Source: Nostoc punctiforme PCC 73102 (GTDB taxonomy: Bacteria > Cyanobacteriota > Cyanobacteriia > Cyanobacteriales > Nostocaceae). Taken from it: DNA of 32,000 nucleotides. The DNA is taken from assembly GCF_000020025.1 (NCBI RefSeq), contig NC_010632.1, positions 120,001-152,000 on the forward strand, read 5' to 3'. Made by a program: the position numbers and the translations under genes. The notes under the pieces were generated by a model. It did not search any database. It saw only the letters and a list, made by a program, of their open reading frames with translations, and was not told the DNA's origin. Positions 1 to 28,160 of the stretch are shown piece by piece (position 1 is the stretch's first letter; each line of letters starts with the position of its first letter).

Positions 1-1
1 A

Positions 2-361
2 ACTCTCAAAACACCAACCTATGTCCAGCTGATGAACTGGCAAGCTCAAACTGCTGCTACTCGCTTACTTGAAACTGGACAAATCACCGCGATCATTCAT
101 GATAATGCCTCTGTCCATAAAAGCTCTTTGGCTTGCCAACAGCACCAACGTTGGCAGCAACAAGGTTTGTACATCTTTTTTCTTCCTCCCTATAGTCCCC
201 AAATGAATCGGATTGAAGATGAATGGTTGCATCTCAAGCGTGACGAGCTTGCTGGTCAAGTTTTTGAGGATGAATATGAATTAGCGATCGCTATTATTGA
301 TGGTATAAATAACCGAGCTAACCACGGACATTATCAAGTTGAGCGTTTTACGTTTAATTAA
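2..361 (+). CDS. IS630-family DDE transposase, C-terminal part (5' end lies outside the window)
   Basis: The frame is open from the window edge. ...AIIHDNASVHKS...FFLPPYSPQMNRIEDEWLHLKR is the typical IS630/Tc1-mariner catalytic C-terminal region. Confidence 0.8.
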   Translation, partial: TLKTPTYVQLMNWQAQTAATRLLETGQITAIIHDNASVHKSSLACQQHQRWQQQGLYIFFLPPYSPQMNRIEDEWLHLKRDELAGQVFEDEYELAIAIIDGINNRANHGHYQVERFTFN

Positions 362-369
362 ATTGATCT

Positions 370-1028
370 ACTTATCAGAACAGTCGAAGTTTCAGTATCA
401 TTCTGCAAACTTTGGAACTTGAAGGATATTCGGTCAGTTACAGCGTCGTCAATATGGCAGGCGAGATAATTGCCCCAGGCGCGTCGGCGGGTAGTTCTGA
501 TTGCAAACAAGGGTTTTCAGGTTGGTTTACCTTTGGGAACTACACCTTGTGATTGGTACGAAGCGTTCACGAAGTGTGCCGAAGGTATCGCCCATCTCAT
601 CCCCACGATGACCGATTCCCAACTACTCCTCAAACAACAGCAAGCTTTGGAGAAATTTTTAGCCGGGAATGCGCCTACACCTCTGTTAATTGAAAGAGTT
701 GGAGGGCGCACAGAGTCCAAGTATAAACCTGGACATTTACCCTGCAATACCATCTTGCGATCGCCTCCGGCGGGCGGGTACGCCATCGCACTTCACGGAT
801 CACAAGGGTTGCAACCGGAGCAAGTTCGCTGATATCTGGTTGCCTGATGGGACAGTCAAATCTTTGACAATCCAAGGTACAGCCATTTTGCAAGGTTTTC
901 CCAGTTGGTATGAGTTCCCAAAAGAGACTACTACGGCTGGGTCAATTATCGGCTATTCTGTACCTCCCAGTTTTGCCGCGCAGTTATTTACTCACATACA
1001 GAAACAATTATCAGGAGCATTTTTATGA
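370..1028 (+). pseudogene. Cytosine-5 DNA methyltransferase remnant: C-terminal half only, with two frameshifts
   Basis: Three frames read in succession. LELEGYSVSYSVVNMAG starts at about 415. PQARRRVVLIA (motif VIII-like) lies in ORF 470-832. SLTIQGTAILQGFPSWYEF...IGYSVPPSFAAQL (motif IX/X-like) lies in ORF 690-1028. The N-terminal motifs are absent, and the remnant starts directly after the IS630 fragment. Confidence 0.6.
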
Positions 1029-1569
1029 CAAACCAAGAGCAACTCACTTAAAATGTGTTGGTACAGGTAAGGAAGAGGACAACCAACAAGCAGGGGACAG
1101 AAAAGAAGAAGCACAGAGGTTGTGCGGTGGGAGCGAATTTCCGCCTGCCTTAATGGTTTTCTTTCCTTAGCGACAGTTTACATCTGGGTTCGCAGAATTT
1201 TATTCGTGGGATAGATTCATAGCTGCCTTCAGCAAGAACTGCCCTCTGCCTTTCTCAATAAGTTATCTCAAAAAGATTAAGGGTAAGTAATTCGGATTAA
1301 CGACCAACAGTTTTAAAATCATTTTAGTTAAAATGCCCTAATTAAAGTGCCTAGAGTTGGCGTACCTAAAACTGAAGAGGCTAAATTCCCTGGGATATTC
1401 CCATCAATTATCCAGCAGTCAATCCCTAAGTTAGAAATAGTCAAAAACTCCTCAACTTTCTTAGCCATCCCGCCAGTAACATCTACTGATTTGCTCTTGC
1501 CCAAGAAAGGTTTAATCTGAGAATAGTTAGCTTGAGTAATATTGGAAACTACTTGCCCATCTCGATCAT

Positions 1570-2751
1570 CAGAAATGTTGAATGCTGATACAAAAGTTTA
1601 CATATCTAGTTACACTAACTCTAAAAAGCCTAAAATAGTCAACATGACATCATCTCTTCAAACCAATGAACATAACTTATTTTCTGACACATACAAGATT
1701 GTAAATAGCGGAATTTATCTAATAGCGTATGTCCCCATTGTTGTGGTACAGATAATATCTGTAAAATTAGATAAGCTATTAAAGTAACGTAAATTTGTAT
1801 GGTGATACCATTAACATTTTTAGTAATTAACTTGTCAAGTTTTAAGTGCATTTTCAAAAACTTCCACAACAATTCAACTCCCCAACGCAATCGATAAATA
1901 TCCCTGATTTCATAATCACTAACGGCAGCCTCTCCTAATGTTGGTAAATTGGTTACTAATCGAAACTCAGTTTTCGTTTCTAAATCACAAAAATTAATCA
2001 CTCTATAGGCTTGAGCATCATTAGATGCACCAACTTTAATTAATCCAGTTTGCTCCTCAAATTCTAACTTCCAATTGTTTTTTACCCGCAAAACAAAGTA
2101 TTTGTTTTCTTGGACTAATTCTTGGATAAATTTTAATCCAGCAAAACCTCTATCCATTACACCAACAGCATTATTTGGTAGACTAGACATCATTTTACAA
2201 CCAAATTTATAGTCATGGTCATGTCCAAAGTTTATGAAGTTATCTGATGGACTTCCAGTAGCTAAATTTAGAGAACTGAAAAGTTTTACTTGATGGTGTC
2301 CTAGTACCCATAACAATTTACTTGTGAGAGTAATAATTGTTGAATCTATTGGACAAATTGCATATTTATCATGTAACTTTTTTTGAACTTTCTTCTGTAC
2401 TAATTCATTTAATTTTTGGTAAATTTCTTGAAAAGGTTTTTGACTTCGATGTAAGTTTGCTTTAGAGAAAGTAGAAATATCTACCGGAAATCCTGTGTTG
2501 TTTAATCTGTTAAATAAATCTCGCATACTTGTTAAGCTGTTATCCATAGCATAAGATAACCAGCACTCAAAGAACAGACGACTGTTCAATACTGGATAAT
2601 CGTTTTTTGGCAGTCCTCTCAAGATATCTTTGACAATCTTGGGAAATGAATTTATAATCACTATTAAATAGATATACTTTAATCTTCCGCCCAAAATTTA
2701 ACATATTTTGGGCTGTTTTTATCGGATTTTTCTTAACATTCAACACTTTTG
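1570..2751 (-). mobile_element. IS4-family insertion sequence (1182 bp)
   Basis: The terminal inverted repeats are CAGAAATGTTGAATGCTGAT (1570-1589) and the reverse complement of 2732-2751, CAAAAGTGTTGAATGTTAAG (15 of 20 identical). A perfect 9-bp direct repeat CTCGATCAT flanks the element at 1561-1569 and 2752-2760. It carries one transposase ORF. Confidence 0.85.
1639..2694 (-). CDS. IS4-family DDE transposase
   Basis: 351 aa. DDE context is present (CPIDSTIITL, VMDRGFAG), and the IS4 signature Y-x2-R-x3-E-x6-K appears in YRLRWGVELLWKFLK. Confidence 0.9.
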   Translation of the reverse strand: MGGRLKYIYLIVIINSFPKIVKDILRGLPKNDYPVLNSRLFFECWLSYAMDNSLTSMRDLFNRLNNTGFPVDISTFSKANLHRSQKPFQEIYQKLNELVQKKVQKKLHDKYAICPIDSTIITLTSKLLWVLGHHQVKLFSSLNLATGSPSDNFINFGHDHDYKFGCKMMSSLPNNAVGVMDRGFAGLKFIQELVQENKYFVLRVKNNWKLEFEEQTGLIKVGASNDAQAYRVINFCDLETKTEFRLVTNLPTLGEAAVSDYEIRDIYRLRWGVELLWKFLKMHLKLDKLITKNVNGITIQIYVTLIAYLILQILSVPQQWGHTLLDKFRYLQSCMCQKISYVHWFEEMMSC

Positions 2752-3562
2752 CTCGATCATATACACCTGCATAATTCCCAACATTTATTAGTCTAACTTT
2801 AAACTTACCTTGAAGATAGAAGTATTTCGCTAGTTCTGCAAGCATTGCATCTGTCGAAAAGACAGTACCACCAATAGCTTGATCTAGAACGACATCACCG
2901 AAAACTAAAGGAATTAAACCTGCTTGTAGACTGCTTTCTATCCCACTAAAGTCACTCTTCAATAGTTTTTTGTTGTGAGTAATTATCATACTAATAGGTG
3001 GCAAACTTACCACTGGTAAACCTACTTGTAAAAAACTTTTAGCTAGTAGGAAATTTAAATCTAAAGCATCTTGGTGGACTAAGCAGAACCCTAGTTTTTC
3101 TTCATCACCTGAAAAACCGTTAATTGTATTATATTTATTCGCTGATTGGTGGGCGAAAGAACCAGCACCGTTACCAATAATCAGTTTCAGATTAGGATTT
3201 TCACGTTTGATTAGGCTCACTTGCTCAACCAGTTGTGTTATAACTTCTCTTCGAGCAGTATAAGGTTTATCCTTGTCAGTAATTAAGGAGCCTCCTAGCT
3301 TCACTAATACTAATTCCATAATCAAATATTAAATGAGGGAAGACAAAAACTTATAAAAAACTAATCCTAGACAAAAAAAATCAAAATTGCTAATAATTTC
3401 AACACAATTTAACAAAATGCATGAAAGTAAACAGTAAATTTTGGTTACAAAATAATGCAGAATTTATCGACCAGAATACATATGTCAGTCGTCAGAAAAC
3501 AGGTATGAATTCTGTACGACACAACGACTGCAGTCAGTGCATCACTGAAGAATGAATAAGGG

Positions 3563-3601
3563 GGTTTAAGACCCCCACAAAACTAGAATTTTTGGTGGTC
3601 T
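3563..3601. repeat. Short hairpin repeat, copy A (GGTTTAAGACCCCCAC-N16-GTGGTCT)
   Basis: Nearly identical to 9873-9912 and related to 27519-27559. The arms AGACC..AC and GTGGTCT can pair. Confidence 0.7.
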
Positions 3602-3693
3602 AGTTGAAATGTAGGCGATCGCTATTACTCCTACGCTTGTTAGCAGCAGTTTTGGAGTATTACTATATACCATGTTCCTAAAGTTATTTTCCA

Positions 3694-4341
3694 CTACTGC
3701 CGGGTTAGTGCGTGATTAAGCTTTTTTTTCTCGAAGCTTTTTATCTTCATAGCAATCATCCCCGCATATATTAGATCAAAAACAAAAATCGCAGTATATA
3801 AAAATATAAATAAAAGTGATCTACCTTGTGTTGGATGATTAATATAAAAACCAATGGAAGCCAGCAAAGTTCCTATCATTTTGAAGATAGCAATAAAGAT
3901 TGATTGACCTCGGACAGTATTACGTTTGGTCAACATATCAATAAAGAGAATAGACATGAGAAGATTTTGCCCAAAAGCTGTATACGCACCGCTCCAATCT
4001 TGAAATTCATCTGTGATTAACAGGACACAGCAAAAGCTAGTAAATAAAGTTAATATAAACACTGGATAAAATAATTTATTTGGTATGTCCTTCAACTCAG
4101 ATTGCCCAAACTTGAAAAATCCATACAAGATAATTAAATCAAGCATCAACCACACAATATTGATTTGAAGTTGTGGTGGCTGATGAGGATGAATAAAAGA
4201 AAATATAAATTCCCAGGAAAGATTGGCACACAACGCAACCAATGGCATTCCATACGTTTGATCTTTAAAGCCACGTTGAATCAACAAAATATAAGTCAGT
4301 ATCCAAAATGCTCCGCTGCCAAGCATTAAATAAGTTCCCAT
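3694..4341 (-). CDS. 7-TM integral membrane protein, putative Pyr4/PaxB-type membrane terpene cyclase
   Basis: 215 aa with about 7 hydrophobic helices. A Shine-Dalgarno AAGGAGG sits 9 nt upstream of the ATG. The segment FKDQTYGMPLVALCANLSWEFIFS resembles the remembered hallmark KD.TYGM..PLC.N..WE of Pyr4/PaxB. There is an acidic residue in TM2 (E44) and one in the last TM (D189). Confidence 0.55.
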   Translation of the reverse strand: MGTYLMLGSGAFWILTYILLIQRGFKDQTYGMPLVALCANLSWEFIFSFIHPHQPPQLQINIVWLMLDLIILYGFFKFGQSELKDIPNKLFYPVFILTLFTSFCCVLLITDEFQDWSGAYTAFGQNLLMSILFIDMLTKRNTVRGQSIFIAIFKMIGTLLASIGFYINHPTQGRSLLFIFLYTAIFVFDLIYAGMIAMKIKSFEKKKLNHALTRQ

Positions 4342-4570
4342 AAATCATTACCTCCTTTATGCTTTTTAAAAATCCAAATTCTTACGGGCTGTAATACAAT
4401 TATTCCTCTTATACAAAGTAAATAATGCACTGCATGTCTAATACAAAGTTACTGAGCATGAGTGTTAACTCTAGTTAACCGCCTGTGCAATGAAAAACTG
4501 CCCTAGGGCAAGGAGTCCAGAGCAGTGCTTGTAAAAAAAATTAAATATGGGAGTTTTAAACTGTTGCCCC

Positions 4571-4830
4571 CCTCTTTACATCTAATTTGTTCGCTATGTA
4601 ATACTCTTCAGTTCAAGTTTTGTACTTTATGCAAAAAGAGCGAAAAACTGTGAAATCTTCACTATACAAGGGTTAGGCGCAATAAACCAAGCTCAATACA
4701 ACACCCTTGGCTGAATACGTACAACCAATGGTTATCAAAATTTGGTCAAACATAAATGCACCATTACCCCAAAAAACAATCGCAGGCTGTGGAGGGGCGA
4801 TTGTAACAAGGGCACAGGAGAGGCGATTGC
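4571..4830 (+). ncRNA. Conserved intergenic element copy 1: candidate promoter plus structured RNA
   Basis: Homologous to 10153-10492. It has a -35 TTTACA (4575-4580), an 18-nt spacer and a -10 TAATAC (4599-4604). Stems AATGGT/ACCATT (4727-4732/4760-4765) and CAATCGC/GCGATTG (4777-4783/4797-4803) are conserved. No ORF is conserved between the two copies on the + strand. Confidence 0.4.
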
Positions 4831-5043
4831 TTACGATAGATGCACTTTCACAAAAATACTCTACCGATTTATTCACATCAATAGAGTATATAAATTTACT
4901 ATAATCATCTTTTACCAACATTCAGTTTATGACTTAGTAATTATTTATACCCCTGTATAAATACTGCAAATCTTGCCTATAGTTTACGTGGGGTTTCCCT
5001 TGCGTCGGCACGGCAACTCACAACCGAACACTAAAAAAAACCT

Positions 5044-5139
5044 ATGTTTCGACTCGGTGAGTTGGTCGAGTTTCGATTTTACGGTGATGGGTCATCGATT
5101 CAGATTGTCCAGCGAATTTTTAAGCTATGCAGGCAATAA
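5044..5139 (+). pseudogene. Truncated paralogue of the small ORF at 8281-8456
   Basis: MFRLGELVEFRFYGDGSSIQIVQRIFKLCRQ*. Positions 5080-5118 match 8283-8321 at 31 of 39 nt (YGDGSSIQIVQRI versus YGDRPPIRIVQGI). Confidence 0.3.
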
Positions 5140-5307
5140 CTAAGGCTCTATTCCTTCATCAATCCAAGCATCAATTGCTGTTTTTACCTCTAATTCAGTC
5201 ACGGCAGACCATTCTCTTTCGTTGATAGTTGTTTTAAATACCGCTCTTTTACCGTAACCAACTTTTTCCATTGAGTGTCCGCGATACACATTTTTAGGCT
5301 TAATCAT
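5140..5307 (-). CDS. Hypothetical small protein (55 aa)
   Basis: ATG-to-TAG ORF MIKPKNVYRGHSMEKVGYGKRAVFKTTINEREWSAVTELEVKTAIDAWIDEGIEP, below the ORF-track cutoff. No clear RBS and no recognised family. Confidence 0.25.
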   Translation of the reverse strand: MIKPKNVYRGHSMEKVGYGKRAVFKTTINEREWSAVTELEVKTAIDAWIDEGIEP

Positions 5308-5443
5308 TTTTCTTAATCATATTTAGAGAATATTATAAACTTTCGCTCAATAAGAAGAGTAGTTTGATTTTCTATGATGGCTGCTGATTGAGGAGATTAT
5401 CATAACTGTAGTGTTAGGCTTGTAGTGAGGACATGACATCAGC

Positions 5444-6613
5444 CTAGAGGAGATTAGTAATTAACGGTGCGAGTTTAGAAGCCATAACCTCTATACTATA
5501 TTTTTCTACACATCTTTGTCTGGCTTTAATACCTCGCTGGTTTGCTGATTCTAAATTCTCAAATATTAATCGAATTTGTTTAACAATTTGTTCAGGACAA
5601 GAAGGCTCAACTAAATAACCAGTATCACCTAAAATTTCGGGAATATCTCCAACACGTGTTGATAATACAGGTTTAGCCATTGCCATTCCATCAGTCAACT
5701 TCAAAGGAAATTGAGCGCGAGTTTCTGGAGTATCTCGCTGGGGAACGACAACAATATGAGCAGCAGCAACTAGATCCGGCATGGCATCAACTGGATACTT
5801 TGGTAGTTTGATAATCCAGCGTCCCCAACGTTGTTGAAGTTGTTGATCGTAATCATCATAAGGACTGCCACCAATAATCACTAATTTTAAGTCTGGCTGA
5901 TTAATTTTTTCTAACGCTATAAGAACATCTTCTAAACCTTTATAAGGTCTAGGTGCACCAGGAAACATTAAAATTCGGTATTCAGATAAATTATAGCGAC
6001 TTCTACTAGAATCAGGATTACATTGAGCCGGATCAAATAAAGAGGTATCCTTGCCATTAGGAACCAACATACCACCAAAACGCTGCTGCAAAAATTTAGT
6101 ATGCACCGTCACAGCATCCGCATGATTTACTAAACCTTCCATCCATTTAACGTACAAAGGATGATATGGGCTCCTGAGTGCGCCGTCTGATTTCAATAAA
6201 TCCCTAGCTAATTGTTTCAGTGTCGGACAATAACGCCAGTTGTCACCACCATGCCAGCTAAGTTCCCAATCATCTATGTCTAAAATCACTGGTTTTCTGC
6301 TGTATAAACTTTTTAACAGTGCAACTCCGAAACTCGCTATCTGTGGTTTAATTGCATAAATTATATCTCCATCAATATGTTTTAAAACTTTGTTGACTGC
6401 TGGAAAAAATTTCGGATAATTTCCACCTTCTATAGCAAAAAGTTTCGTATCAGATGGAATGGCAGCAGAGAGATTTTTGTTAAATAAAAATCCTAATATT
6501 TCTGTTTCATAACCCAATTTTTCTAACGCTGATTTCAATAACGATGCTCGAATGAAACCATCATTAGTAGACAAATTCCATACAAGCAGCGATATCTTTA
6601 GTTTAGTTTTCAT
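5444..6613 (-). CDS. Glycosyltransferase, family 4 (GT-B fold, group 1)
   Basis: 389 aa. The C-terminal half (...LKLVIIGGSPY...VVPQRDTPETRAQFPLKLTDGMAMAKPVLSTRVGDIPEILGDTGYLVEP) is typical of the GT1/GT4 nucleotide-sugar binding domain. Confidence 0.85.
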   Translation of the reverse strand: MKTKLKISLLVWNLSTNDGFIRASLLKSALEKLGYETEILGFLFNKNLSAAIPSDTKLFAIEGGNYPKFFPAVNKVLKHIDGDIIYAIKPQIASFGVALLKSLYSRKPVILDIDDWELSWHGGDNWRYCPTLKQLARDLLKSDGALRSPYHPLYVKWMEGLVNHADAVTVHTKFLQQRFGGMLVPNGKDTSLFDPAQCNPDSSRSRYNLSEYRILMFPGAPRPYKGLEDVLIALEKINQPDLKLVIIGGSPYDDYDQQLQQRWGRWIIKLPKYPVDAMPDLVAAAHIVVVPQRDTPETRAQFPLKLTDGMAMAKPVLSTRVGDIPEILGDTGYLVEPSCPEQIVKQIRLIFENLESANQRGIKARQRCVEKYSIEVMASKLAPLITNLL

Positions 6614-6762
6614 TTCGATAACATTTGATAATTATGATTTAAGAAAAAACTGCCAAATCAAAAACCTACATTACTTATTGTAAATATTTCAGGAATTAGC
6701 TGAATAATTTATAGCTAAAAGTACTTTTTTAATCTTTCAATAAATCAATCTTTTTACTGTAT

Positions 6763-6972
6763 TTACGATGAAATTTCAGTAATTCTATATAAGCTAATGG
6801 TACTACTATGGGCCAAAAAAATAGTTATTAATACTAAAATTATTCCAGATAAAAAGTACTGCTTTCGGCTCATGTCTTTATCATCTATCAAGAAAAATAA
6901 CCATTGATTCAACAAATACCAAGCAAATACTAAATAAACGGTTATTCCGATATATATTAGAAGTAAATTCAA
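6763..6972 (-). CDS. Hypothetical small membrane protein (2 TM)
   Basis: 69 aa with two hydrophobic segments. It lies upstream of the GT4 gene on the same strand. No recognised family. Confidence 0.35.
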   Translation of the reverse strand: MNLLLIYIGITVYLVFAWYLLNQWLFFLIDDKDMSRKQYFLSGIILVLITIFLAHSSTISLYRITEISS

Positions 6973-7463
6973 TACTAAACCTCTATTAATAGTAAAGTTT
7001 GAGTCAGCATTAGAAATAGAAAAAATATTTTTTTGAATATCTAATTAAAAAACTAATTGATTTTTATAAAAGCCTAACCTTTATTTTATAAATTTTACTC
7101 TTTGGCCATAAACCTCTGAATTCGTGTGAATGTTAGAAATTTTTATAAAATAGATAATCTAAATATTGTGAAACTAAAATTTTCACAATAATATCTCTTA
7201 AAATTTAAAATTTACAGAATATAAGCTGCGATTGCAATGAATAATCCTTTGATTAACTTGTCAATTTTTTATTAGTGCTGGATAGTTTGCCTTTTTTGCT
7301 TAACTTCGACAAACTCCAAGTCCAGTAAGCTGTCTAACTCGGATTTCTCACCACACCTCTCAAAGCCTGTGCTTGTGCAGGGGAGAGTTCAAATACTAAG
7401 TTCCTTCCCCTCTGCCCCTCTGCTCTATCAAACGCCTGAAGCTTGTGAGAAATGCGGGTCTAG

Positions 7464-7814
7464 ATATCTCCTAGTCACAATCACGACTTTGCTACGAATA
7501 ACCAGAAATCCCAATCCACACAGATATCGCCAAGTACCACTGCCATCGGCAACAATCCAACATCATCTGCGGCGGATTTCTTTGCCTCGGCACAACTAAC
7601 TCAGGCAATAAACTTGCTCTCTCATGAAAACCGAAGCTATCAACCCGGCATTCGTGAGGTGGCTTTTGGGATTCCCGTTGGAGTAGCCAAGGGGATCAAG
7701 GGTAATTATGATGCCCGTCGTGCTTATGGTTTGAGTTGTTCTCCCCGGCAAGCTGCGATCGCTTGGAAACGGATTGATTATTTGTGGAGTCTAAACTCCT
7801 GTCAGGAGGCATAA
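7464..7814 (+). pseudogene. ORF remnant of unknown function
   Basis: The frame is open from 7464, but the first possible start is TTG at 7614. It overlaps ORF 7369-7599 in another frame, which is consistent with a frameshifted gene. The stop overlaps the RBS of the next ORF. Confidence 0.2.
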
Positions 7815-7879
7815 GCATGATTAACCAAGTCCCGAATCTAGAAACTTGTTGGTATCTTTCACCTCCTTGGGGTCAAACC

Positions 7880-7904
7880 AATTCGCAATTCGCAATTCGC
7901 AATT
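7880..7904. repeat. Heptanucleotide tandem array (AATTCGC)x3 plus AATT
   Basis: Read directly from the sequence. It is the reverse complement of the array at 8213-8280. Confidence 0.9.
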
Positions 7905-7924
7905 TTAGGAAAGGAACTAAATGT

Positions 7925-8212
7925 ATGAGTCAACAATTTAGCATTACTGAGAGAACGCAAGCTTTGGCAATAAGAATAGTTAAAGCTTGTAGTTTCTTAT
8001 ATGAAAAACCTGGAGTTTGTCGAACATTATCGAAGCAATTACTACGAAGTGGAACAGCTATCCAATTCGCAACTCGCTTTTTCGCCCTTCGCAGTTAAGT
8101 CAGCAATGATTTTAAGCTTATATCAATTTAAAGATAGTGAGTATTTAATTAAATTGGAATTGATAAACCAACTGAACATTAAATTGCTTGCAATAAGTAT
8201 TTTGTATTTTAC
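7925..8212 (+). pseudogene. Four-helix-bundle protein gene (23S rRNA intervening-sequence protein / Avd-like family), decayed
   Basis: MSQQFSITERTQALAIRIVKACSFLYEKPGVCRTLSKQLLRSGTAI matches the usual N-terminus of this family. After about 8070 the expected continuation appears only in fragments across frames with stops (SNDFKLISI*, EYLIKLELI). Confidence 0.6.
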
Positions 8213-9564: not shown

Positions 9565-9872
9565 ATCCCTTTTCTATCCTAACTTTTGAGACTGTGTGCG
9601 TACCTCATAACAGACGCAAGTGCTGTATCTTGCTTGACTTCCTTTTTCATTTCCATGTTTAAATAAAGACTAAACCATTGTTTAATCACTTGTAGCTAAA
9701 TACATAATTCTTTTCGTCTTACCTTGGTATTAGTTACTACATAAGAATCTGCATAAGTATTTATCAGGAAAGTCGGGGGCAGTTCTTAATAGGGGCTCAG
9801 TTGGGAATACTGCACTTTTGCTATGCTCAGTGCAAACTTTCTGCTCTCTGCCGCGATCGCTAGCGAACTTGC

Positions 9873-9912
9873 GGTTTAAAACCCCCACAAAACTGGAATT
9901 TTTGGTGGCTCT
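9873..9912. repeat. Short hairpin repeat, copy B
   Basis: GGTTTAAAACCCCCACAAAACTGGAATTTTTGGTGGCTCT differs from copy A at only a few positions. Confidence 0.7.
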
Positions 9913-10152
9913 GGTTAATACCAATTCACAATACAACTCTTGGAGAGGCTATGCTTAGGGCGTAGCTATGCCGCAGGCTTTACGGCTGCGCCCTTCTCCT
10001 GTCGCAGACGCTATGCGTAGCTTGCTTCCACAAAGTGGTACGACTACGCTCACGCTGAACTCAGTACAAGGAGATCAATTCGCAATAGGCTACGCCTATA
10101 GGTAGATAAATTAAAAATTTTCTCTCTTGTTTAGTATTTATTATTACGTCCC

Positions 10153-10492
10153 TTCGTTTACATATAATTCGTTTGGTATGTAATATTCTTCAGCTAAAGT
10201 TTTGTACTTTATGCAAAAAGAACTATAAACGAATGGCACTAAGTTAAACGTAAACCCTACCCCCAACAAGATAGCCCTGACAAGTTTTCTTAGTGACATT
10301 CAACTATAAACCTTGAAAACTGTATCCTATAAGGATTAGAGACAATAAACCAAGCCCAACACAATCCTATCAGTTGTATGCGTGTAAACCAATGGTTATC
10401 AAAATCTGGTCAAGCGTTGCACCATTACCCCAAGGAAGCAATCGTAGGCTGTGGAGAGCGGTTGTGGCAAGGGCAAAGGTGAAGGCGATCGC
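10153..10492 (+). ncRNA. Conserved intergenic element copy 2: candidate promoter plus structured RNA, with an insertion of about 90 nt
   Basis: It has TTTACA (10157-10162), an 18-nt spacer and TAATAT (10181-10186). It is homologous to 4571-4830. The stem CAATCGT/GCGGTTG (10439-10445/10458-10464) keeps pairing through two G-U wobbles, but only if the + strand is transcribed. Confidence 0.4.
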
Positions 10493-11440: not shown

Positions 11441-14400
11441 ATGGCATCTACAACCATTTTTACTCCTGGCAATCTATTGGTTAGCCGTAGTGTATATACT
11501 GGCACGGCTTCAACAGTAACTTTTCCTGGGACATTGCCAAACGGAGTAGCGTCAGTTGCTGATGGCACATATCCGAATGTATTTTCAAACGAAAGCGTAG
11601 ATGGTAGTTTTGGTGTAACTTCGCCGATTTTTCTCGATCAAGTTACGCCCTCTGGGACATTAGTCAACTTTGAAAATGTGACGCAGACAGTAAGCAACCA
11701 GCTTGGGAAAAACTTGTCTACCAGCTTCCCATCTAAGTCAGAGTTAGCACTGAACTTAACTCCAGATGGTACGGGTGTTACATTCGTGTCATATCTAGCT
11801 GCATCAAACACACTAGACGTATCAAACTCGAACACACCCGGACACGTAGACAATACTAACCCCGTATCAAGCGTCGGCACAATTCAACGTGCAATTACTC
11901 AAATTGATAGCAATGGTAACGTTGTCGATCTAACTCCAATCAATGCCTATAGCGGAAATAACGGTCGCGCTGGTCTTTTGGGTAGTAATGGTCTTTACTA
12001 TACAGTAGGAAATGCTGGCAATGGAGGTAGTATTTCTATTGCTGGAGCGACCACTACTGAAGGCAGCACAACGATCGGGACTACCGATATCACTGGTTTG
12101 GTTGTAGGACAAGCGATCGCCGGAAGCAATATTCCCGCAACTGATGCCAATGGTGTTCCTGTGACTGTGGTTTCTACTGACCCAACCACTAATACTTTCG
12201 TCATTAGTGCGCCGGCTACAGTTACCGGTGTCGATGCCAAAGCAAAGATTATCCAAACAGGTACTACACTATCTGATTTAAGCGCCAACACTGGTGTACA
12301 AGCAATCCAACCTGGAGATACAACAGGTAATACAACTGTAGTTGGGATAGAAAAAGGCTCTGTAGGATCTACCACTGGTAATCAGTATGGTTTCTCAATC
12401 ACTGATTTACCAGGTATTACCACTGGGGATAAAACAGGTAAAGACGACAACTTCCGTGGTCTGACACTGAACCCCTATGATAACTCCCTTTACGTCTCCA
12501 AAGGCAGTGGTAGTAATGGAGTCAACACTGTCTACAAAGTGACTCCAACTAGCGGTACTCTTCCTACCCTTGACAATGCGAGTACTGCTAGCATCACTAT
12601 TTTGCCTGGTTTCCCAACGGATTTAGCAAATGGTTCGACCAACTTCTATCCCTTTGGGCTGTGGTTTGCCAATCCGACAACCTTGTATGTTGCTGATGAA
12701 GGCGCTGGAATCAAAAATGAGAAATCAGCTGCCGATCTGCTTCTAGCTGCAAACGATGCTAATGCTGGTTTGTCAAAGTGGAGTTTGGCTAATGGCACAT
12801 GGCATCTAGACTACACTTTACAAAATGGCTTGAATCTTGGTCAAGATTACAGTTCTAGCGTTGCTGATGGGCCTAACGGAGAAATTTATTCTGCTCCAAC
12901 TGCTACTGCTGGTCTTCGTAACATTACAGGTCAAGTTAATGGTGACGGAACTGTGACAATTTATGGTGTAACTTCAACAGTTAGCACCCAAACCGATCAG
13001 GGTGCAGACCCAAATAAAGTTGTGGCAATTACTGATCTGGTGTCAGCGACGAATTTACCCATAACCGAAAGCTTTAACACAGTAGAGTCAGCCAAATACG
13101 GTGAAGTCCTTCGCGGTGTTTCCTTCACACCCTCGTCAACACCTGTTTCTCCACCAGTTGTTTCTACCCAACCTCCGGCAAGTCCTACCTTTAATCATGT
13201 TCTAATTATTTCCATTGATGGATTACACAACTCTGACCTCTCAGTTGCTAATCTGCAATCTTCTTTAAGCAATATCAAGCGTTTGCAAGGCGAAGGTGTT
13301 ACCTACACCAATGCTTTCACCTCTGCACCCTCTGACTCCTTCCCTGGCGAACTAAACTATATCACTGGTGCGAATCCTGGCACGACTGGTGTATTTTATG
13401 ACAAATCCTACAGTCGCACCTTGTATGCTCCAGGTACTACTGCTGCTGAAATCGCCGCCGGTACTGCTAAACCGGGTACTGGTGTGGAATTTGCCGAAAA
13501 CGTTGATGCATCTTGGGCTGCTGGTGGTACTTTAGATGGTGGTCAAGGGTTTGATACCAGTCAACTGCCTGTTGATAGCAATGGCAACCCTGTTTATCCC
13601 AACCAATACCTCAAGGTCAATACAATTTTTGATGTGGCTAACGCGGCTGGACTGAGTACTGCTTGGTCTGACAAGCATCCCGCAGCTTATACAATTCTTG
13701 CTGGACCGTCTTCAGATCCCACGCAGTTTAATTTTGCTACGGGAAAGGTTGGTAGTATCGACGATTACTCTTCCCTAGAAATTAATGCCGCAGTAGCGAT
13801 CGATCCAACTAAGCCCGGTACTCTCCCAACTAGCACGGGTGCTTTAGTCGATCAGTCAACAGGGACTCCTTACTCCAATACCAACCCTGATATTACATCC
13901 AATTTCTTTAACGACGCGACAAAGGGTAATCCGGCTCTGTTTAAGGCTCCACCCACTGGTTTTAGCGCGAATCAGTTCACCAGTGTGGCAACAACCTCCG
14001 CCTACGACGATCTCAAGGTTAAGCAAATACTCAACGAGATCGATGGCTTTAACGCTGCGGGGACGACAAAAGTTGACACTCCAGCAATTTTTGGCTTGAA
14101 TTTACAAGCTGTGAGTGTAGCCGAGAAAGAGCCAGCTACTCAATTTAACGGTGGCGGGATTGACGCTAATGGAAATGCTCGTCCCGATCTGGTAACGGCA
14201 ATCGATCATACCGATCAGAGCATTGGTCTGATTTTGGATGAATTACAAAAGCAAGGATTGGACAGTTCAACTCTGGTGGTTTTAACCGCCAAGCACGGAC
14301 AAAACCCAGTCCAAGATCCTACCGTTGGTTTGAATAGTACATTTGATAGTGTGACTGGTGCTGTCGGTGGTGATGGCAACCTGACTGCTTTTGGCGCACT

Positions 14401-15703
14401 TCTCGCACAGAATGGTATTCAGCTTGATGCTGAGAGAGGTGGCGATACTTCATCCTTGCTCTTCTTGAAGAATCCATCCGATGTTCAAAAAGCTGTAGCA
14501 CTACTGAATGATAAGAATTACTCATTTGATAGTGCGATCGATCCAAATACCGGGGTGGCCTTTTCTACAGAGGATGCTGCTGCTCAGGGAACGGTACTGT
14601 ATGGTCAAGGGATTATCAATGCCGGATTGGGAGATCCAGCAACCAGCGATCGCACTCCTGATATTGTTGTCGAACTCAATAATGGCTACTTTTTTGGTAA
14701 TGCTACCAAGAAACGTGCAGAGCATGGTGGATTTACTGATGCTGACACTCATGTAGCCTTGATTGCTGGTAGTAGTGGATTAGCCAGCAGTCTCCAAGGG
14801 ACGACCAACACTCAAACCGTTTCTACTACCCAAATTGCCCCGACTACACTACAGTCTCTAGGCTTAGATCCTAACCAACTTCAAGGTGTGCAGATTGACG
14901 GAACTCAGTTATTACCTGGCTTAACCCAGCCAGCACCAGACATCACATTTGGTTCAACTAATAGCGATGATGTCACCGTCAACTCCAACCAAATTCTCTT
15001 TGCTGGTAACGGCGCAGATACAGTAGAATCTGCCAATCCTAACACCACAGTTATGGCGGGTAACGGTGATGATACGGTGTTTGTAGGCAGTGACTCTTCA
15101 GTGTTTGGCAATGATGGCAACGATCAAGTCTTTGTTGGTGCAGACGGTCAAGCTGGTAATACCAATGTTGATGGTGGAAATGGTAATGATACCATCACCG
15201 TAGTAGAAGCCAAAGCAGATAATAATCTGTTTGGTGGTGCTGGTAATGACAACCTCCAAGTAGTTGAGGGTTCTGGACAATTCCTGTTTGGGGGTTCCAA
15301 CGATGATACTCTCCGTAGTGGTGGCAGTAATAACCGTCTCTATGGTGGTTCTGGAAATGATACACTTTACGCCAATCACAATGATTTTCTGTCTGGTGGC
15401 GATGGTGACGATCACCTATTTACTGGTAATGGAGGTGGAAATCGCCTGACTGGTGGCGCTGGTGCTGACCAATTCTGGATTGCCAATGCCGGACTACCAA
15501 CCAGCAAGAATATTGTTACCGACTTCATTCCAGGAGTTGATCTGTTGGGAATTGGCGGTATTGCTAGTGCTACTAAATTCAGCGATCTAACGCTGTCACA
15601 AGTTGGCAGTGATACCTTACTGAAGGTAGGATCTACTGAATTAGTTTCACTGCTAGGTGTAACATCTAGTACGCTGACTGCTAACAACTTTACTTTCGCT
15701 TAG
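11441..15703 (+). CDS. Large secreted multidomain protein: unknown N-terminal domain, type I phosphodiesterase/nucleotide pyrophosphatase-like domain, and RTX Ca-binding repeats
   Basis: 1420 aa with no Sec-type signal peptide. A P/S/T linker ([20 protein letters not shown]) follows the N-terminal domain. [43 protein letters not shown] and [13 protein letters not shown] form an alkaline-phosphatase-superfamily (NPP-like) core at about 13190-14770. At least 9 GGxGxD-type nonapeptides ([40 protein letters not shown] and others) lie at about 15000-15480. Confidence 0.85.
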
Positions 15704-21675: not shown

Positions 21676-23326
21676 TTAAATATTATTTGTGTTCCCCCTC
21701 CTGGCGCTGCATCTGCCGATACTCCAATACCTGTTGGGTGAACACGACAGACATCTTTAGTATTGAGGCGATAGTACCTAATGCGCTTGATTTTATAAAG
21801 TAAGTAGAACAGGTGGGAAAAACCAAACTATGTTAATAAAAGTAAAGTGGGCTAAAACCCTCTTTCTCCCTGCCTTCTGCTTCCTGCCTCTTGCCTAAAC
21901 CTGATGATAAATATTCACACCGACTTACTTATCCCTCTTCTGTCACTTTCCGGAATAAGCAAGTAGTAAAGAAGCTAAATCATCCAGAAGCATAACAGGG
22001 TTTAAATTGATTCATGGCTGCAATTAAATGATTGAATCCCAGTAATAACTGTGAATTAGGGAAAATATCGAGCCAAGGATAAATCAACCAAAATAGTAAG
22101 AGTGGTTGGACGATTAGACGCAGATTATTTAAAACATTCTTCCATCCAGATTCATGATTCCATTGTTGATGATTAGAAAAGTCAATATGACTAGTTCTTT
22201 GCCCCTCAGCCTCAATTTGGCGAGATTGATTTAAGGCTAACAAGGCTGGAGAATTCAAACTAATCATCGTGTAAACGCAAAAAATAATCTCCCACCACCT
22301 CTCAATATGTTGAAAATTTGTGAAACGATAATCTGTCCAGCCTAGTTCTTGTTTACACTGTCGAAAACCATATTCAACCCAGGTTCTTAATCCATATAAG
22401 TCGCCTAAAGTCTTTTTCAAATTCCCTTGAAGATTCGTCATCACGAAGGAGGTAGAATTTTCTGGCATGGTTTCTGGGTCAGTAGTTATTTCCCAGTAAG
22501 TTATGGTTCTTTTTTTACCATAAATTATTTCTCTAATGTATCTAGTCTCTGATTTTTGATTACTAAATGTTCTCTCAAATTTACACCAATTGTTTGCTCT
22601 AACACTTTGCCCTGCTGGCAACCAGACTCCATGATTACTTCTAATTGCTACCACATAGGCTAAGTTATATTCATCCAGTTTTCTAATAAATTGGCTACTT
22701 TCACCATATAAACTATCTGCCAGTACCAGTTCAATCTGAAAGCCCTCTTCCATTAACTCTGTAATCATTTCTGACGCTAACTCTATTTTAGTTTTATATT
22801 TATCTCCCTCTTTCAGCGTCCCTTTTGGTTTAAACACTTTTACCATTAATGGAAAGGTTATATTAGAGTAAACTCCATAAGCATTGACTGAAACTATTCC
22901 ATTATCAATTTTTCCCACACTTCCTAAGTATTGTCTCGCCACATAGTCAGTCTTTTTACCTTTTTTTCTATCTCCAGTTTCATCTATTACTACTGTAATC
23001 GCCTGACCATTCAATACTTGCTTAAGTTTATTTAATCTTCGTTGTTTTAATTCATCTACTGACCAATCTGAATTTGCCAGGAAATGATGTAATGATTGGG
23101 CTGAGTTTATACTTACTACCTTCGCTATCTCTGGTAATGATTTCCTTTTTATTGTTGATATGATTCCTAAGTGTAAATATTTGAAACACTCATAATTTCT
23201 TACTTCCTTAAATAGGTCTTTATAATCTGCACAATATTCATCTATAGCAATCCTAAATGAGTTGTGAAAAATTACACATAACGATAAGCTGGATCTAATT
23301 AATATAGAAAATATACAACTCCCTAT

Positions 23327-23776
23327 ATGAAAGAATTGATAGATTTTATCCAAGGGAACCCAGATAAAAGAGAACTGAAACGAGCACTGGCTGTACAAAT
23401 GGTGATGGAAAGTTACACTCATTCTCAAATTACAGAAATTTTGCACGTATCTTTAGGTTTTGTCAATAAGTGGAAATATATTTTTGTGGAACAGGGGGTT
23501 GCAGGGTTAAAACTTAAATATCAAGGTTCGAGGGGTTATCTTGATAGCAAACAAAAACAAACAGTGATTGAATGGCTTAAACAAAAAGATTACTGGCATT
23601 TAAATGAACTAAAAAAGTACATAGAATCAAGTTTTAATATAGCATTTGAGTCAAACCAAAGCTATTATGACCTATTTAAAGAAGCATCTATAAGTTGGAA
23701 AAAAACACAAAAAAAGAACCCACGCAAAGACGAGGAGTTAGTAGCAAAAAAAACTAGAAATTACAGCATGGCTTAA
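23327..23776 (+). CDS. IS630-family transposase orfA (HTH, DNA-binding part)
   Basis: 149 aa with helix-turn-helix-like segments (SQITEILHVSLGFVNKW). It ends just after an A8 tract. Confidence 0.8.
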   Translation: MKELIDFIQGNPDKRELKRALAVQMVMESYTHSQITEILHVSLGFVNKWKYIFVEQGVAGLKLKYQGSRGYLDSKQKQTVIEWLKQKDYWHLNELKKYIESSFNIAFESNQSYYDLFKEASISWKKTQKKNPRKDEELVAKKTRNYSMA

Positions 23777-24335
23777 TGCACATAAAAGTGAGATTGTGTC
23801 TGGAGAAATGGTTGTATTTTTTGAGGATGAGTGTCATTTGTTGTGGGGAGACATTTGTGGTTATATTTGGGGTAATACTCAAGAAAGAATTGAAGTTCCA
23901 GTTCTTAACGAAAGACAAAGACAGACATACTTTGGCGCACTGAATTATTACACACAAGAATTTTTAATTAAGCCGTTCAAAAAAGGTGATTCTAAATCGG
24001 CAATTGCATTCGTAGAATACTTACTTACTCAATATCCGAAAAGCCGTATAGCTTTGATTTGGGATGGTGCTAGTTATCACCGTTCAGTTGAATTTCAAGA
24101 TTATTTAAAATCTGTAAATCAGGGGCTAAACGAGAACGAATGGAAAGTTACTTGTATTCGCTTCGCTCCTAATGACCCGACACAAAACCCAGTGGAAGAT
24201 ATTTGGTTGTCTGCTAAAAAGTTTATTAGAGAATTTTATCATCTATGTAAATCTTTTACTATTGTCAAGCGTTTATTTGAACTCGCTGTTCACCATGAAA
24301 TATTTAATTTCCCAAAAATATTTATGTATGATTGA
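23745..24335 (+). CDS. IS630-family transposase orfB (DDE catalytic part); frame open from 23745
   Basis: VVFFEDECHL...TYFGALNY...IALIWDGASYHRS...FAPNDPTQNPVEDIWLSAKK is the DDE region. Its frame is offset by one nucleotide from orfA across the A8 tract at 23746-23753. Confidence 0.8.
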   Translation, partial: QKKLEITAWLNAHKSEIVSGEMVVFFEDECHLLWGDICGYIWGNTQERIEVPVLNERQRQTYFGALNYYTQEFLIKPFKKGDSKSAIAFVEYLLTQYPKSRIALIWDGASYHRSVEFQDYLKSVNQGLNENEWKVTCIRFAPNDPTQNPVEDIWLSAKKFIREFYHLCKSFTIVKRLFELAVHHEIFNFPKIFMYD

Positions 24336-27693: not shown

Positions 27694-28160
27694 CTAACTT
27701 GCAACTGGAACAGGCTCAAGATTAACTTGATAACCAAGCTTTTCTAAGCGCAAAACCCAAGCGTTTCTTGACACTTTCCGGTCGTTGTTTGTCAAAATAA
27801 TCAGCTCCTAAATCTTTATAAGGTTCTTGGCGCGATATTAAATGATATGCGATCGTTAAAATAGAATGTGCAACAGCAACAGCTGCGCGTTTTTTGCCTC
27901 TTCGCCCACTAATACGACGAAACTGAGCAGCAAGGTAAGTTTTAGTATGAGCTAGGGCATGAGCAGCTTGAACCAGAATTGTTCGTAAGGAACGATTGCC
28001 TTTACGGGTATTAGTTGAAAGCGTTTTACCAGCACTTTCGTAGTTACCAGGAGCAACCCCAGCCCAAGCAGCTAAATGTTCAGCACTTGGAAAACGGCTC
28101 ATATCCATGCCGATTTCAGAGACAATAATCTCCGCAGTTCGACTAATACGTGGATATCTA
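27694..28160 (-). pseudogene. IS110-family transposase remnant: 5'-truncated and frameshifted near the 3' end
   Basis: ..PRISRTAEIIVSEIGMDMSRFPSAEHLAAWAGVAPGNYESAGK...RRGKKRAAVAVAHSILTIAYHLI is the C-terminal IS110 domain. The usual tail LEKLGYQVNLEPVPVAS* is present but in another frame, ending at 27694. The N-terminal catalytic domain is absent. Confidence 0.75.

Follow-up and report, generated by a model that had tools for sequence, protein, structure and literature searches.

A putative stand-alone Pyr4-family membrane terpene cyclase beside an interrupted kinase gene on a Nostoc punctiforme plasmid

Introduction

Transmembrane terpene cyclases of the Pyr4 type are described from fungi (Pyr4 of the Aspergillus fumigatus pyripyropene pathway, PaxB, AusL, AndB, AscF and MacJ) and from bacteria, where TylF (tolypodiol), XiaH/XiaE (xiamycin), DmtA1 (drimentines), GroF and ZigF (zigralones) have been characterised (PMC13307353). 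Genes for the fungal enzymes lie clustered with those for a polyketide synthase or PaxC, a UbiA prenyltransferase and a flavin adenine dinucleotide (FAD) dependent epoxidase, and the enzymes use epoxy-prenylated scaffolds as substrates. The bacterial enzymes likewise belong to multi-gene clusters with polyprenyl synthase, prenyltransferase and oxygenase genes. Here we analyse a gene of this family in Nostoc punctiforme PCC 73102 that, in contrast to both groups, stands without such partners. It occupies positions 3694..4341 of the complementary strand in a stretch of 32,000 nucleotides (contig NC_010632.1, positions 120,001 to 152,000), hereafter the window, and the next gene on the same strand encodes a homologue of isopentenyl phosphate kinase (IPK).

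A recent genome-mining survey of bacterial Pyr4-like cyclases gathered 1107 sequences, only 264 of which lay within 20 kb of terpenoid genes, and deliberately passed over the stand-alone members for want of clustered partners; 13 cyanobacterial sequences are in its filtered set (PMC13307353). TylF itself comes from a cyanobacterium, Nostocales HT-58-2, and its proposed catalytic Glu is conserved (PMC13307353), as it is in the Nostoc protein. A conserved Glu is proposed as the Bronsted acid of Pyr4-like cyclases (PMC13307353), and the active site of Pyr4 reportedly comprises E63 and D218 (PMC6486709). A preliminary description of the window had presented the locus as a novelty for cyanobacteria, which goes too far: TylF is characterised, bacterial and stand-alone homologues have been surveyed (PMC13307353) and databases name the family, close homologues being called 'transmembrane-type terpene cyclase' by NCBI and UniRef.

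A Pyr4-family protein with a conserved acidic pair

The cyclase gene is an intact open reading frame (ORF) of 215 codons with an ATG start, and its product is an exact match of ACC85260.1 / WP_012413268.1, a protein encoded on one of the large plasmids of N. punctiforme PCC 73102. None of the NCBIfam models matches this protein, and a sequence search of the PDB with it found no relative; no structure from the family has been solved. Comparison with Pfam assigns it to PF25129 (Pyr4-like transmembrane terpene cyclases) at E=1.8e-30 and 106.7 bits, the cut-off being 27, with residues 4-193 covering profile positions 19-218 of 227; the six fungal enzymes named above share this domain. Eleven fungal Pyr4-family proteins, taken from Supplementary Data 7 of PMC11109268, match the Nostoc sequence by BLASTP at E=1e-13 to 6e-29 with 23-34% identity. 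Together the profile and BLASTP matches confirm the Pyr4/PaxB assignment made in the preliminary description, indicating that the N. punctiforme protein truly belongs to the Pyr4-type transmembrane terpene cyclases.

We examined whether the acidic residues of the active site are retained. In an alignment of 46 sequences (35 prokaryotic, 11 fungal), E44, D189 and Y192 are invariant. E44 aligns with the invariant Glu of the fungal proteins (E62/63 in the Aspergillus and Penicillium homologues) and D189 with their invariant Asp (D216/217 in the same homologues). Judged by position in these close fungal homologues, E44/D189 correspond to Pyr4 E63/D218, as had been proposed for the two residues. 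The family assignment and the acidic pair of the preliminary description are therefore borne out by the PF25129 match, the fungal alignment and the published active site; the 215-residue ORF, the positions of E44 and D189 and the quoted segment (FKDQTYGMPLVALCANLSWEFIFS, residues 25-48) were likewise found as reported there. Fungal members and the Nostoc cyclase have in common the motif KD.(T/S)YGMPL..LC.N..WE, the Glu and a C-terminal Asp-x-x-Tyr at aligned positions. Within the prokaryotic clade D68 and E112 are also invariant and D115 is nearly so, E112 and D115 being missing from most fungal members. The Nostoc cyclase keeps all invariant residues of the family.

The fungal sequence closest to the Nostoc cyclase is HDV00_012830 of the chytrid Rhizophlyctis rosea (34% identity). 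In a neighbour-joining tree this sequence groups with the prokaryotic clade and not with the other fungi, which could reflect horizontal transfer.

Like its fungal relatives, which together with it span about 215-245 amino acids, the Nostoc cyclase is predicted to have seven transmembrane helices. AlphaFold2, given 48 homologues, produced a model of high confidence (mean predicted local distance difference test score 92.5, predicted template modelling score 0.86) that contains seven long helices, at residues 2-26, 34-50, 57-82, 88-112, 119-140, 148-173 and 176-214, in agreement with the seven hydrophobic helices noticed earlier. The model places E44 in the second helix and D189 in the seventh. 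Foldseek comparison with the PDB gives the KDEL receptor, cystinosin and SWEET transporters as the closest solved folds; these matches are weak, for their TM-scores lie mostly at about 0.52-0.62 and fall to 0.46 with a single SWEET entry, E values are 5e-3 or worse and identity is 10-15%. The comparison hints that the Pyr4 family may share the seven-helix architecture of these carriers and receptors.

Several features suggest that the gene is maintained. A Shine-Dalgarno-like element, AAGGAGGT, lies at 4350..4357 on the complementary strand, and its GGAGG core ends 9 nt 5' of the cyclase ATG, so that the strong ribosome-binding site of the preliminary description is indeed present. Copies of the cyclase in other strains show 96-97% protein identity, and the ratio of nonsynonymous to synonymous substitution rates (dN/dS) against relatives is 0.04-0.25, as under purifying selection. 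A sequence search with the protein returned 700 homologues, and an exhaustive profile-free search gave 1172 cluster representatives at E<=1e-3. The profile match, the homologue numbers and the low dN/dS place the ORF far beyond chance, and the intact frame together with the dN/dS range indicates that the gene is maintained. An Rfam scan of window positions 1-8000 gave no match. A riboswitch or leader was considered and found unsupported, as was an operon that includes small upstream ORFs.

A widespread and mostly stand-alone clade

Stand-alone homologues were reportedly first discussed in the tolypodiol paper of Back et al. in 2023. Scanning one genome per species, we found 49 homologue loci, in Nostoc, Zarconia, Nitrososphaeria, Methanoperedens, Chloroflexota, Bacillota, Bacteroidota, Planctomycetota and others. 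Cyclase identity between Nostoc and soil Nitrososphaeria, Methanoperedens, Clostridia, Bacteroidota and Chloroflexota is 50-60%. That the stand-alone clade is so broad and so strongly conserved in archaea appears to be undescribed in the literature searched, a minor point of novelty.

To describe the gene neighbourhoods, we ran Pfam on the 124 ORFs nearest the cyclase at 42 loci. The census returned 211 Pfam families; the most frequent was UbiA, at 3 loci, and no family occurred in more than 3 of the 124 ORFs. Judged by their surroundings, most members of the prokaryotic clade are stand-alone genes. A UbiA prenyltransferase gene lies directly upstream of the cyclase in Methanoperedens, Methylocaldum and Zarconia navalis, and in relatives from Anaerolineales and Chloroflexia a polyprenyl synthase gene lies 1.5 kb from it. 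Cyclases with UbiA or polyprenyl synthase neighbours are 42-55% identical to the Nostoc protein and are nested in its clade in the neighbour-joining tree. That a few relatives nested in the same clade adjoin such genes supports a terpenoid role for the prokaryotic clade. The UbiA prenyltransferase genes that the preliminary description had suggested looking for are thus present in a few relatives, and so are polyprenyl synthase and cytochrome P450 genes, but most loci lack them.

A cyanobacterial parallel with partners is the cyclase of Zarconia navalis LEGE 11467, which belongs to the same prokaryotic clade and is 50% identical to the Nostoc protein. Its gene lies between UbiA and P450 genes on one strand, amid unrelated flanks (locus L030, 3828-7085), and this UbiA-cyclase-P450 cassette is a candidate minimal cyanobacterial meroterpenoid cluster. 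The N. punctiforme gene, in contrast, has neither UbiA nor P450. No prenyltransferase, polyprenyl synthase, epoxidase or scaffold gene was found among the ORFs examined across the 32 kb of the window, in keeping with the preliminary description. Nostoc homologues of 67-76% identity lie amid unrelated housekeeping genes, and no meroterpenoid partner genes were found at these relatives' loci (L050, L052, L054). The surroundings of the homologue on Streptomyces clavuligerus pSCL4 (36% identity) are without clear isoprenoid genes.

The neighbouring IPK gene is interrupted by an insertion sequence

The ORF that follows the cyclase (2567-3325, complementary strand) matches the IPK model NF040647 at 127 bits, over model positions 2-195 of 259. 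The preliminary description was right to recognise an IPK-like kinase gene on the same strand, but it missed that the gene is broken. An IS4-family insertion sequence (IS) of 1182 bp lies at 1570..2751 on the complementary strand, with terminal inverted repeats matching at 13/15 positions and a transposase ORF (1639-2694) that matches the IS4 model NF033592 at 191 bits. Perfect 9-bp direct repeats of ATGATCGAG, at 2752..2760 and 1561..1569, represent the two copies of the target-site duplication. The 5' part of IPK, codons 1 to ~189, lies at 2752..3319 (complementary strand) and is annotated in RefSeq as a 250-residue IPK that reads into the IS (WP_234711207.1). The 3' part, at 1328..1560 on the same strand, includes the DVTGGM motif, and its 58-residue piece is a hypothetical protein in RefSeq (WP_193372292.1). 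The insertion thus splits off the C-terminal ~77 codons, including DVTGGM, and the reading frame is not intact.

In-silico removal of the IS and one repeat copy yields an IPK ORF of 266 residues that matches NF040647 from end to end (179.2 bits, cut-off 120, model positions 2-259 of 259). The uninterrupted site is present in Nostoc sp. C057 (L057) and on two contigs, one from a JGI metagenome (L064) and one from Logan (L070), and the same IS is found on other Nostocales plasmids. Analysis of dN/dS shows that IPK, like the cyclase, is under purifying selection. Because an IS4 insertion with a 9-bp duplication splits the gene, the IPK of PCC 73102 is a recently inactivated pseudogene, and it was probably a separate, once functional gene.

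A further break was seen in Nostoc sp. 'Peltigera membranacea cyanobiont' (chromosome CP026681, locus L068). There the IPK (9816-10406) breaks off near residue 195, next to a different transposase of the DDE type and ~20 nt from the site of the IS4 insertion in the window, and the cyclase is intact. These features indicate that L068 is a second, independent inactivation of a cyclase-linked IPK.

IPK is an enzyme of the archaeal mevalonate pathway, and the restored Nostoc gene shares with it the amino-acid-kinase fold. Unlike the archaeal gene, the Nostoc gene is IS4-interrupted, belongs to a cyanobacterium and has many counterparts across Nostocales, irrespective of the cyclase. Cyanobacteria are expected to use the methylerythritol phosphate pathway, so the role of an IPK here would be salvage and not main-line synthesis.

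The cyclase-IPK pair is confined to close Nostoc relatives

Is the adjacency of the two genes conserved? We rejected the notion that it is unique to this genome, as plasmid and exact-protein look-ups showed the pair, in the same order and on the same strand, in six to seven close Nostoc assemblies with cyclases at least 96% identical (pair loci L057, L064, L065, L068-L070). It occurs on plasmid p057_N of Nostoc sp. C057, where IPK is intact, on the JGI metagenome contig L064 and the Logan contigs L065 and L070, and in two Peltigera-cyanobiont assemblies (L068, L069), one of which is an 8.2-Mb chromosome. The sequences that flank the pair differ among these assemblies. Two contigs that might pass for a cyclase without IPK (L066, L067) were rejected as such, for both end inside the cyclase-IPK spacer.

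Within the same lineage each gene also occurs without the other. Nostoc NMS7 and N. linckia FACHB-391 have the cyclase without IPK, and Nostoc sp. C052 (pC052_D) and XA013, plasmid-type contigs with the same plasmid backbone, have IPK without the cyclase; C052 and NMS7 carry both genes, unlinked. Outside the lineage the pairing was not seen. None of the 49 homologue loci, with some 45 more distant cyclases from bacteria and archaea, has an IPK within 10 kb, and no IPK was called at the three Nostoc contexts with a cyclase of 67-76% identity (L050, L052, L054). Nostocales commonly carry IPK homologues, several of them on contigs of multi-megabase, chromosome-like size, and neither of the two chromosomal Nostocales contexts examined has a cyclase near IPK; the IPK loci L059, L061 and L063 all lack the pairing. 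Adjacency is therefore not conserved across divergent homologues but is limited to cyclases of 96% identity or more, indicating that the linkage is confined to one shallow, mobile Nostoc lineage. Likewise, the IS4 insertion, the truncation in L068 and the occurrence of either gene alone argue that the cyclase does not need IPK.

The spacer between the two genes offers further evidence. From the cyclase stop to the IPK start it measures 368 bp (3326..3693, complementary strand). At 3560..3576 on the complementary strand, 118 nt 3' of the cyclase stop, there is a G+C-rich, terminator-like hairpin, GGGGGTCTTAAACCCCC, with a T-rich tail behind it. The hairpin sits within a 206-bp indel (3472..3677) that the window shares with C057, L064 and L069 but that L068 and L070 lack; in the last two the spacer is ~167 bp long and has neither indel nor hairpin. 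The hairpin GGGGGTCTTAAACCCCC belongs to a short dispersed repeat found at window positions 3562-3601, inside the indel, and at 9873-9908, and also on another Nostoc plasmid.

The cyclase itself resides in a segment of ~1 kb (about window positions 3465-4480) that behaves as a discrete presence/absence unit among relatives. In C052 precisely this stretch (about 3465-4478) is missing and 437 bp of unrelated sequence stand in its place (L058, 9625-10062), the homology of XA013 to the window stops at 3464, and three short-read contigs (L065-L067) all end at window position 4480. These three observations suggest that repeat or mobile boundaries surround the cyclase segment.

With IPK split, the linkage limited to a shallow lineage, no wider pairing and a hairpin-bearing spacer of 368 bp, the cyclase-IPK locus is weaker than proposed. 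Of the cyclase-plus-IPK locus put forward in the preliminary description, the recurrence of the pair in close Nostoc relatives stands, but one partner is broken and either gene is found alone; its argument from co-localisation is weakened by the wider loci. The IS-disrupted IPK and the shallow, mobile pairing in symbiotic Nostoc appear to be undescribed in the literature searched, and both are minor points.

Weighing the explanations

We favour the view, to which we give a probability of about 0.6, that the gene encodes a functional, stand-alone Pyr4-family seven-helix membrane terpene cyclase on a mosaic, IS-rich plasmid, IPK being a separate gene that is not required. By homology, a membrane-soluble polyprenyl chain would enter the helical bundle, where Glu44 of helix 2, helped by Asp189 and Tyr192 of helix 7, would act as a Bronsted acid and protonate a terminal double bond or epoxide, leading to a class-II-type cationic polycyclisation. 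The chain could belong to a small molecule that carries a prenyl group or to a prenyl lipid of ubiquitous occurrence, and the genes for its synthesis would lie elsewhere in the genome. Close members of the clade are found in Methanoperedens, Syntrophomonas, Formimonas and Orenia, generally regarded as strict anaerobes, and for this reason the reaction in the clade may usually begin with protonation of an olefin and not with the opening of an epoxide derived from O2. Since the cyclase seems not to need IPK, which is IS4-inactivated here, the locus would be an orphan cyclase gene and not a self-contained pathway. Four points weigh against this view. Cyclase activity in the prokaryotic clade rests on homology; the structural likeness to Pyr4 and PaxB rests on sequence profiles; stand-alone Pyr4-like genes have been suspected of lying outside meroterpenoid biosynthesis (SI of PMC13307353); and the pair's repeated appearance amid differing flanks, in six to seven assemblies, goes beyond one chance juxtaposition, so that a functional link could exist.

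Such a link would be explained if cyclase and IPK formed a mobile two-gene isoprenoid module, of which the PCC 73102 copy was recently damaged. IPK would then raise or recycle the prenyl-phosphate pool that feeds the cyclase substrate, converting isopentenyl and dimethylallyl phosphate to the diphosphates, or acting on longer prenyl monophosphates. The same order and strand in the C057, JGI, Peltigera-cyanobiont and Logan assemblies despite differing flanks, the short hairpin-less spacer of L068 and L070, which is compatible with co-transcription, and purifying selection on both genes fit this explanation; two isoprenoid-related genes are also unlikely to adjoin by chance, and C052 and NMS7 hold both, though unlinked. 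All cases of the pair, however, fall in one shallow lineage and may therefore go back to a single ancestral juxtaposition. The 49 wider loci and the three Nostoc contexts of 67-76% identity lack an IPK nearby, while IPK, widespread in Nostocales, occurs without a nearby cyclase at both chromosomal contexts and on two plasmid-type contigs. IPK was inactivated twice independently with the cyclase intact both times, and the cyclase segment is a separate indel relative to C052 and XA013. Moreover, a protonation-type cyclase neither consumes nor releases phosphate, so no direct chemical coupling to IPK would be expected. We therefore regard a module as rather unlikely, and it is equally doubtful that the linkage reflects a functional association.

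The stand-alone prokaryotic clade might instead serve the membrane in some other way, for instance by transporting or binding small molecules, with the acidic pair serving proton-coupled chemistry. Among solved structures the best matches are carriers and receptors with seven helices, isoprenoid neighbours are missing from most clade members, 50-60% identity across distant phyla looks more like housekeeping than specialised metabolism, and the suspicion cited above concerns these very copies. Yet the fold matches are weak, the sole recurrent neighbours are UbiA prenyltransferases, with polyprenyl synthase and P450 in addition, the Glu, Asp and Tyr common to proven cyclases are invariant, and prenyltransferase-linked members are nested in the same clade; we hold a function of this kind to be very unlikely. 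Least probable of all is that the gene is non-functional cargo, the decaying remnant of a former cluster on an IS-eroded plasmid region. Its surroundings are degraded (split IPK, methylase remnant, several transposases) and no partner genes lie within 32 kb, but the full-length ORF with its strong ribosome-binding site, the 96-97% identity to other strains with dN/dS far below 1 and the retention of every invariant family residue speak for a maintained gene. The preliminary description had offered a remnant or a two-gene module; IPK is indeed damaged, but neither alternative is favoured by the evidence as a whole.

A bolder extension of the stand-alone cyclase reading is that the clade comprises oxygen-independent cyclases acting on a ubiquitous membrane polyprenyl compound, mobilised in symbiotic Nostoc with a pool-tuning IPK. 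We think this decidedly unlikely; if true, bacteria and archaea would share a widespread route to cyclic isoprenoid lipids that has so far gone unrecognised. Should the enzyme prove active, N. punctiforme would offer a genetically tractable model cyanobacterium for identifying what the stand-alone Pyr4-like cyclases of bacteria and archaea act on. As it stands, the protein is one more uncharacterised member of a described family, and its link to IPK is shallow and dispensable.

Surroundings of the locus

Beyond IPK, the C-terminal remnant of a C5 DNA cytosine methyltransferase (PF00145) lies at 373..1028 on the forward strand, collinear with L058, L063 and L064. The DnaB-ASCH-methylase-IPK block is a conserved plasmid backbone in relatives (L057, L058, L063, L064). 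Further transposase genes or fragments occur at 32-361, 21980-23446, 23327-24335 and 27722-28108, one confirmed as DDE_5 and the others judged by eye; with several of these in the window, the region is consistent with an IS-rich mosaic plasmid. A 1420-residue ORF at 11441-15703 combines type I phosphodiesterase/sulfatase-like domains with RTX calcium-binding repeats and probably encodes a secreted phosphoesterase.

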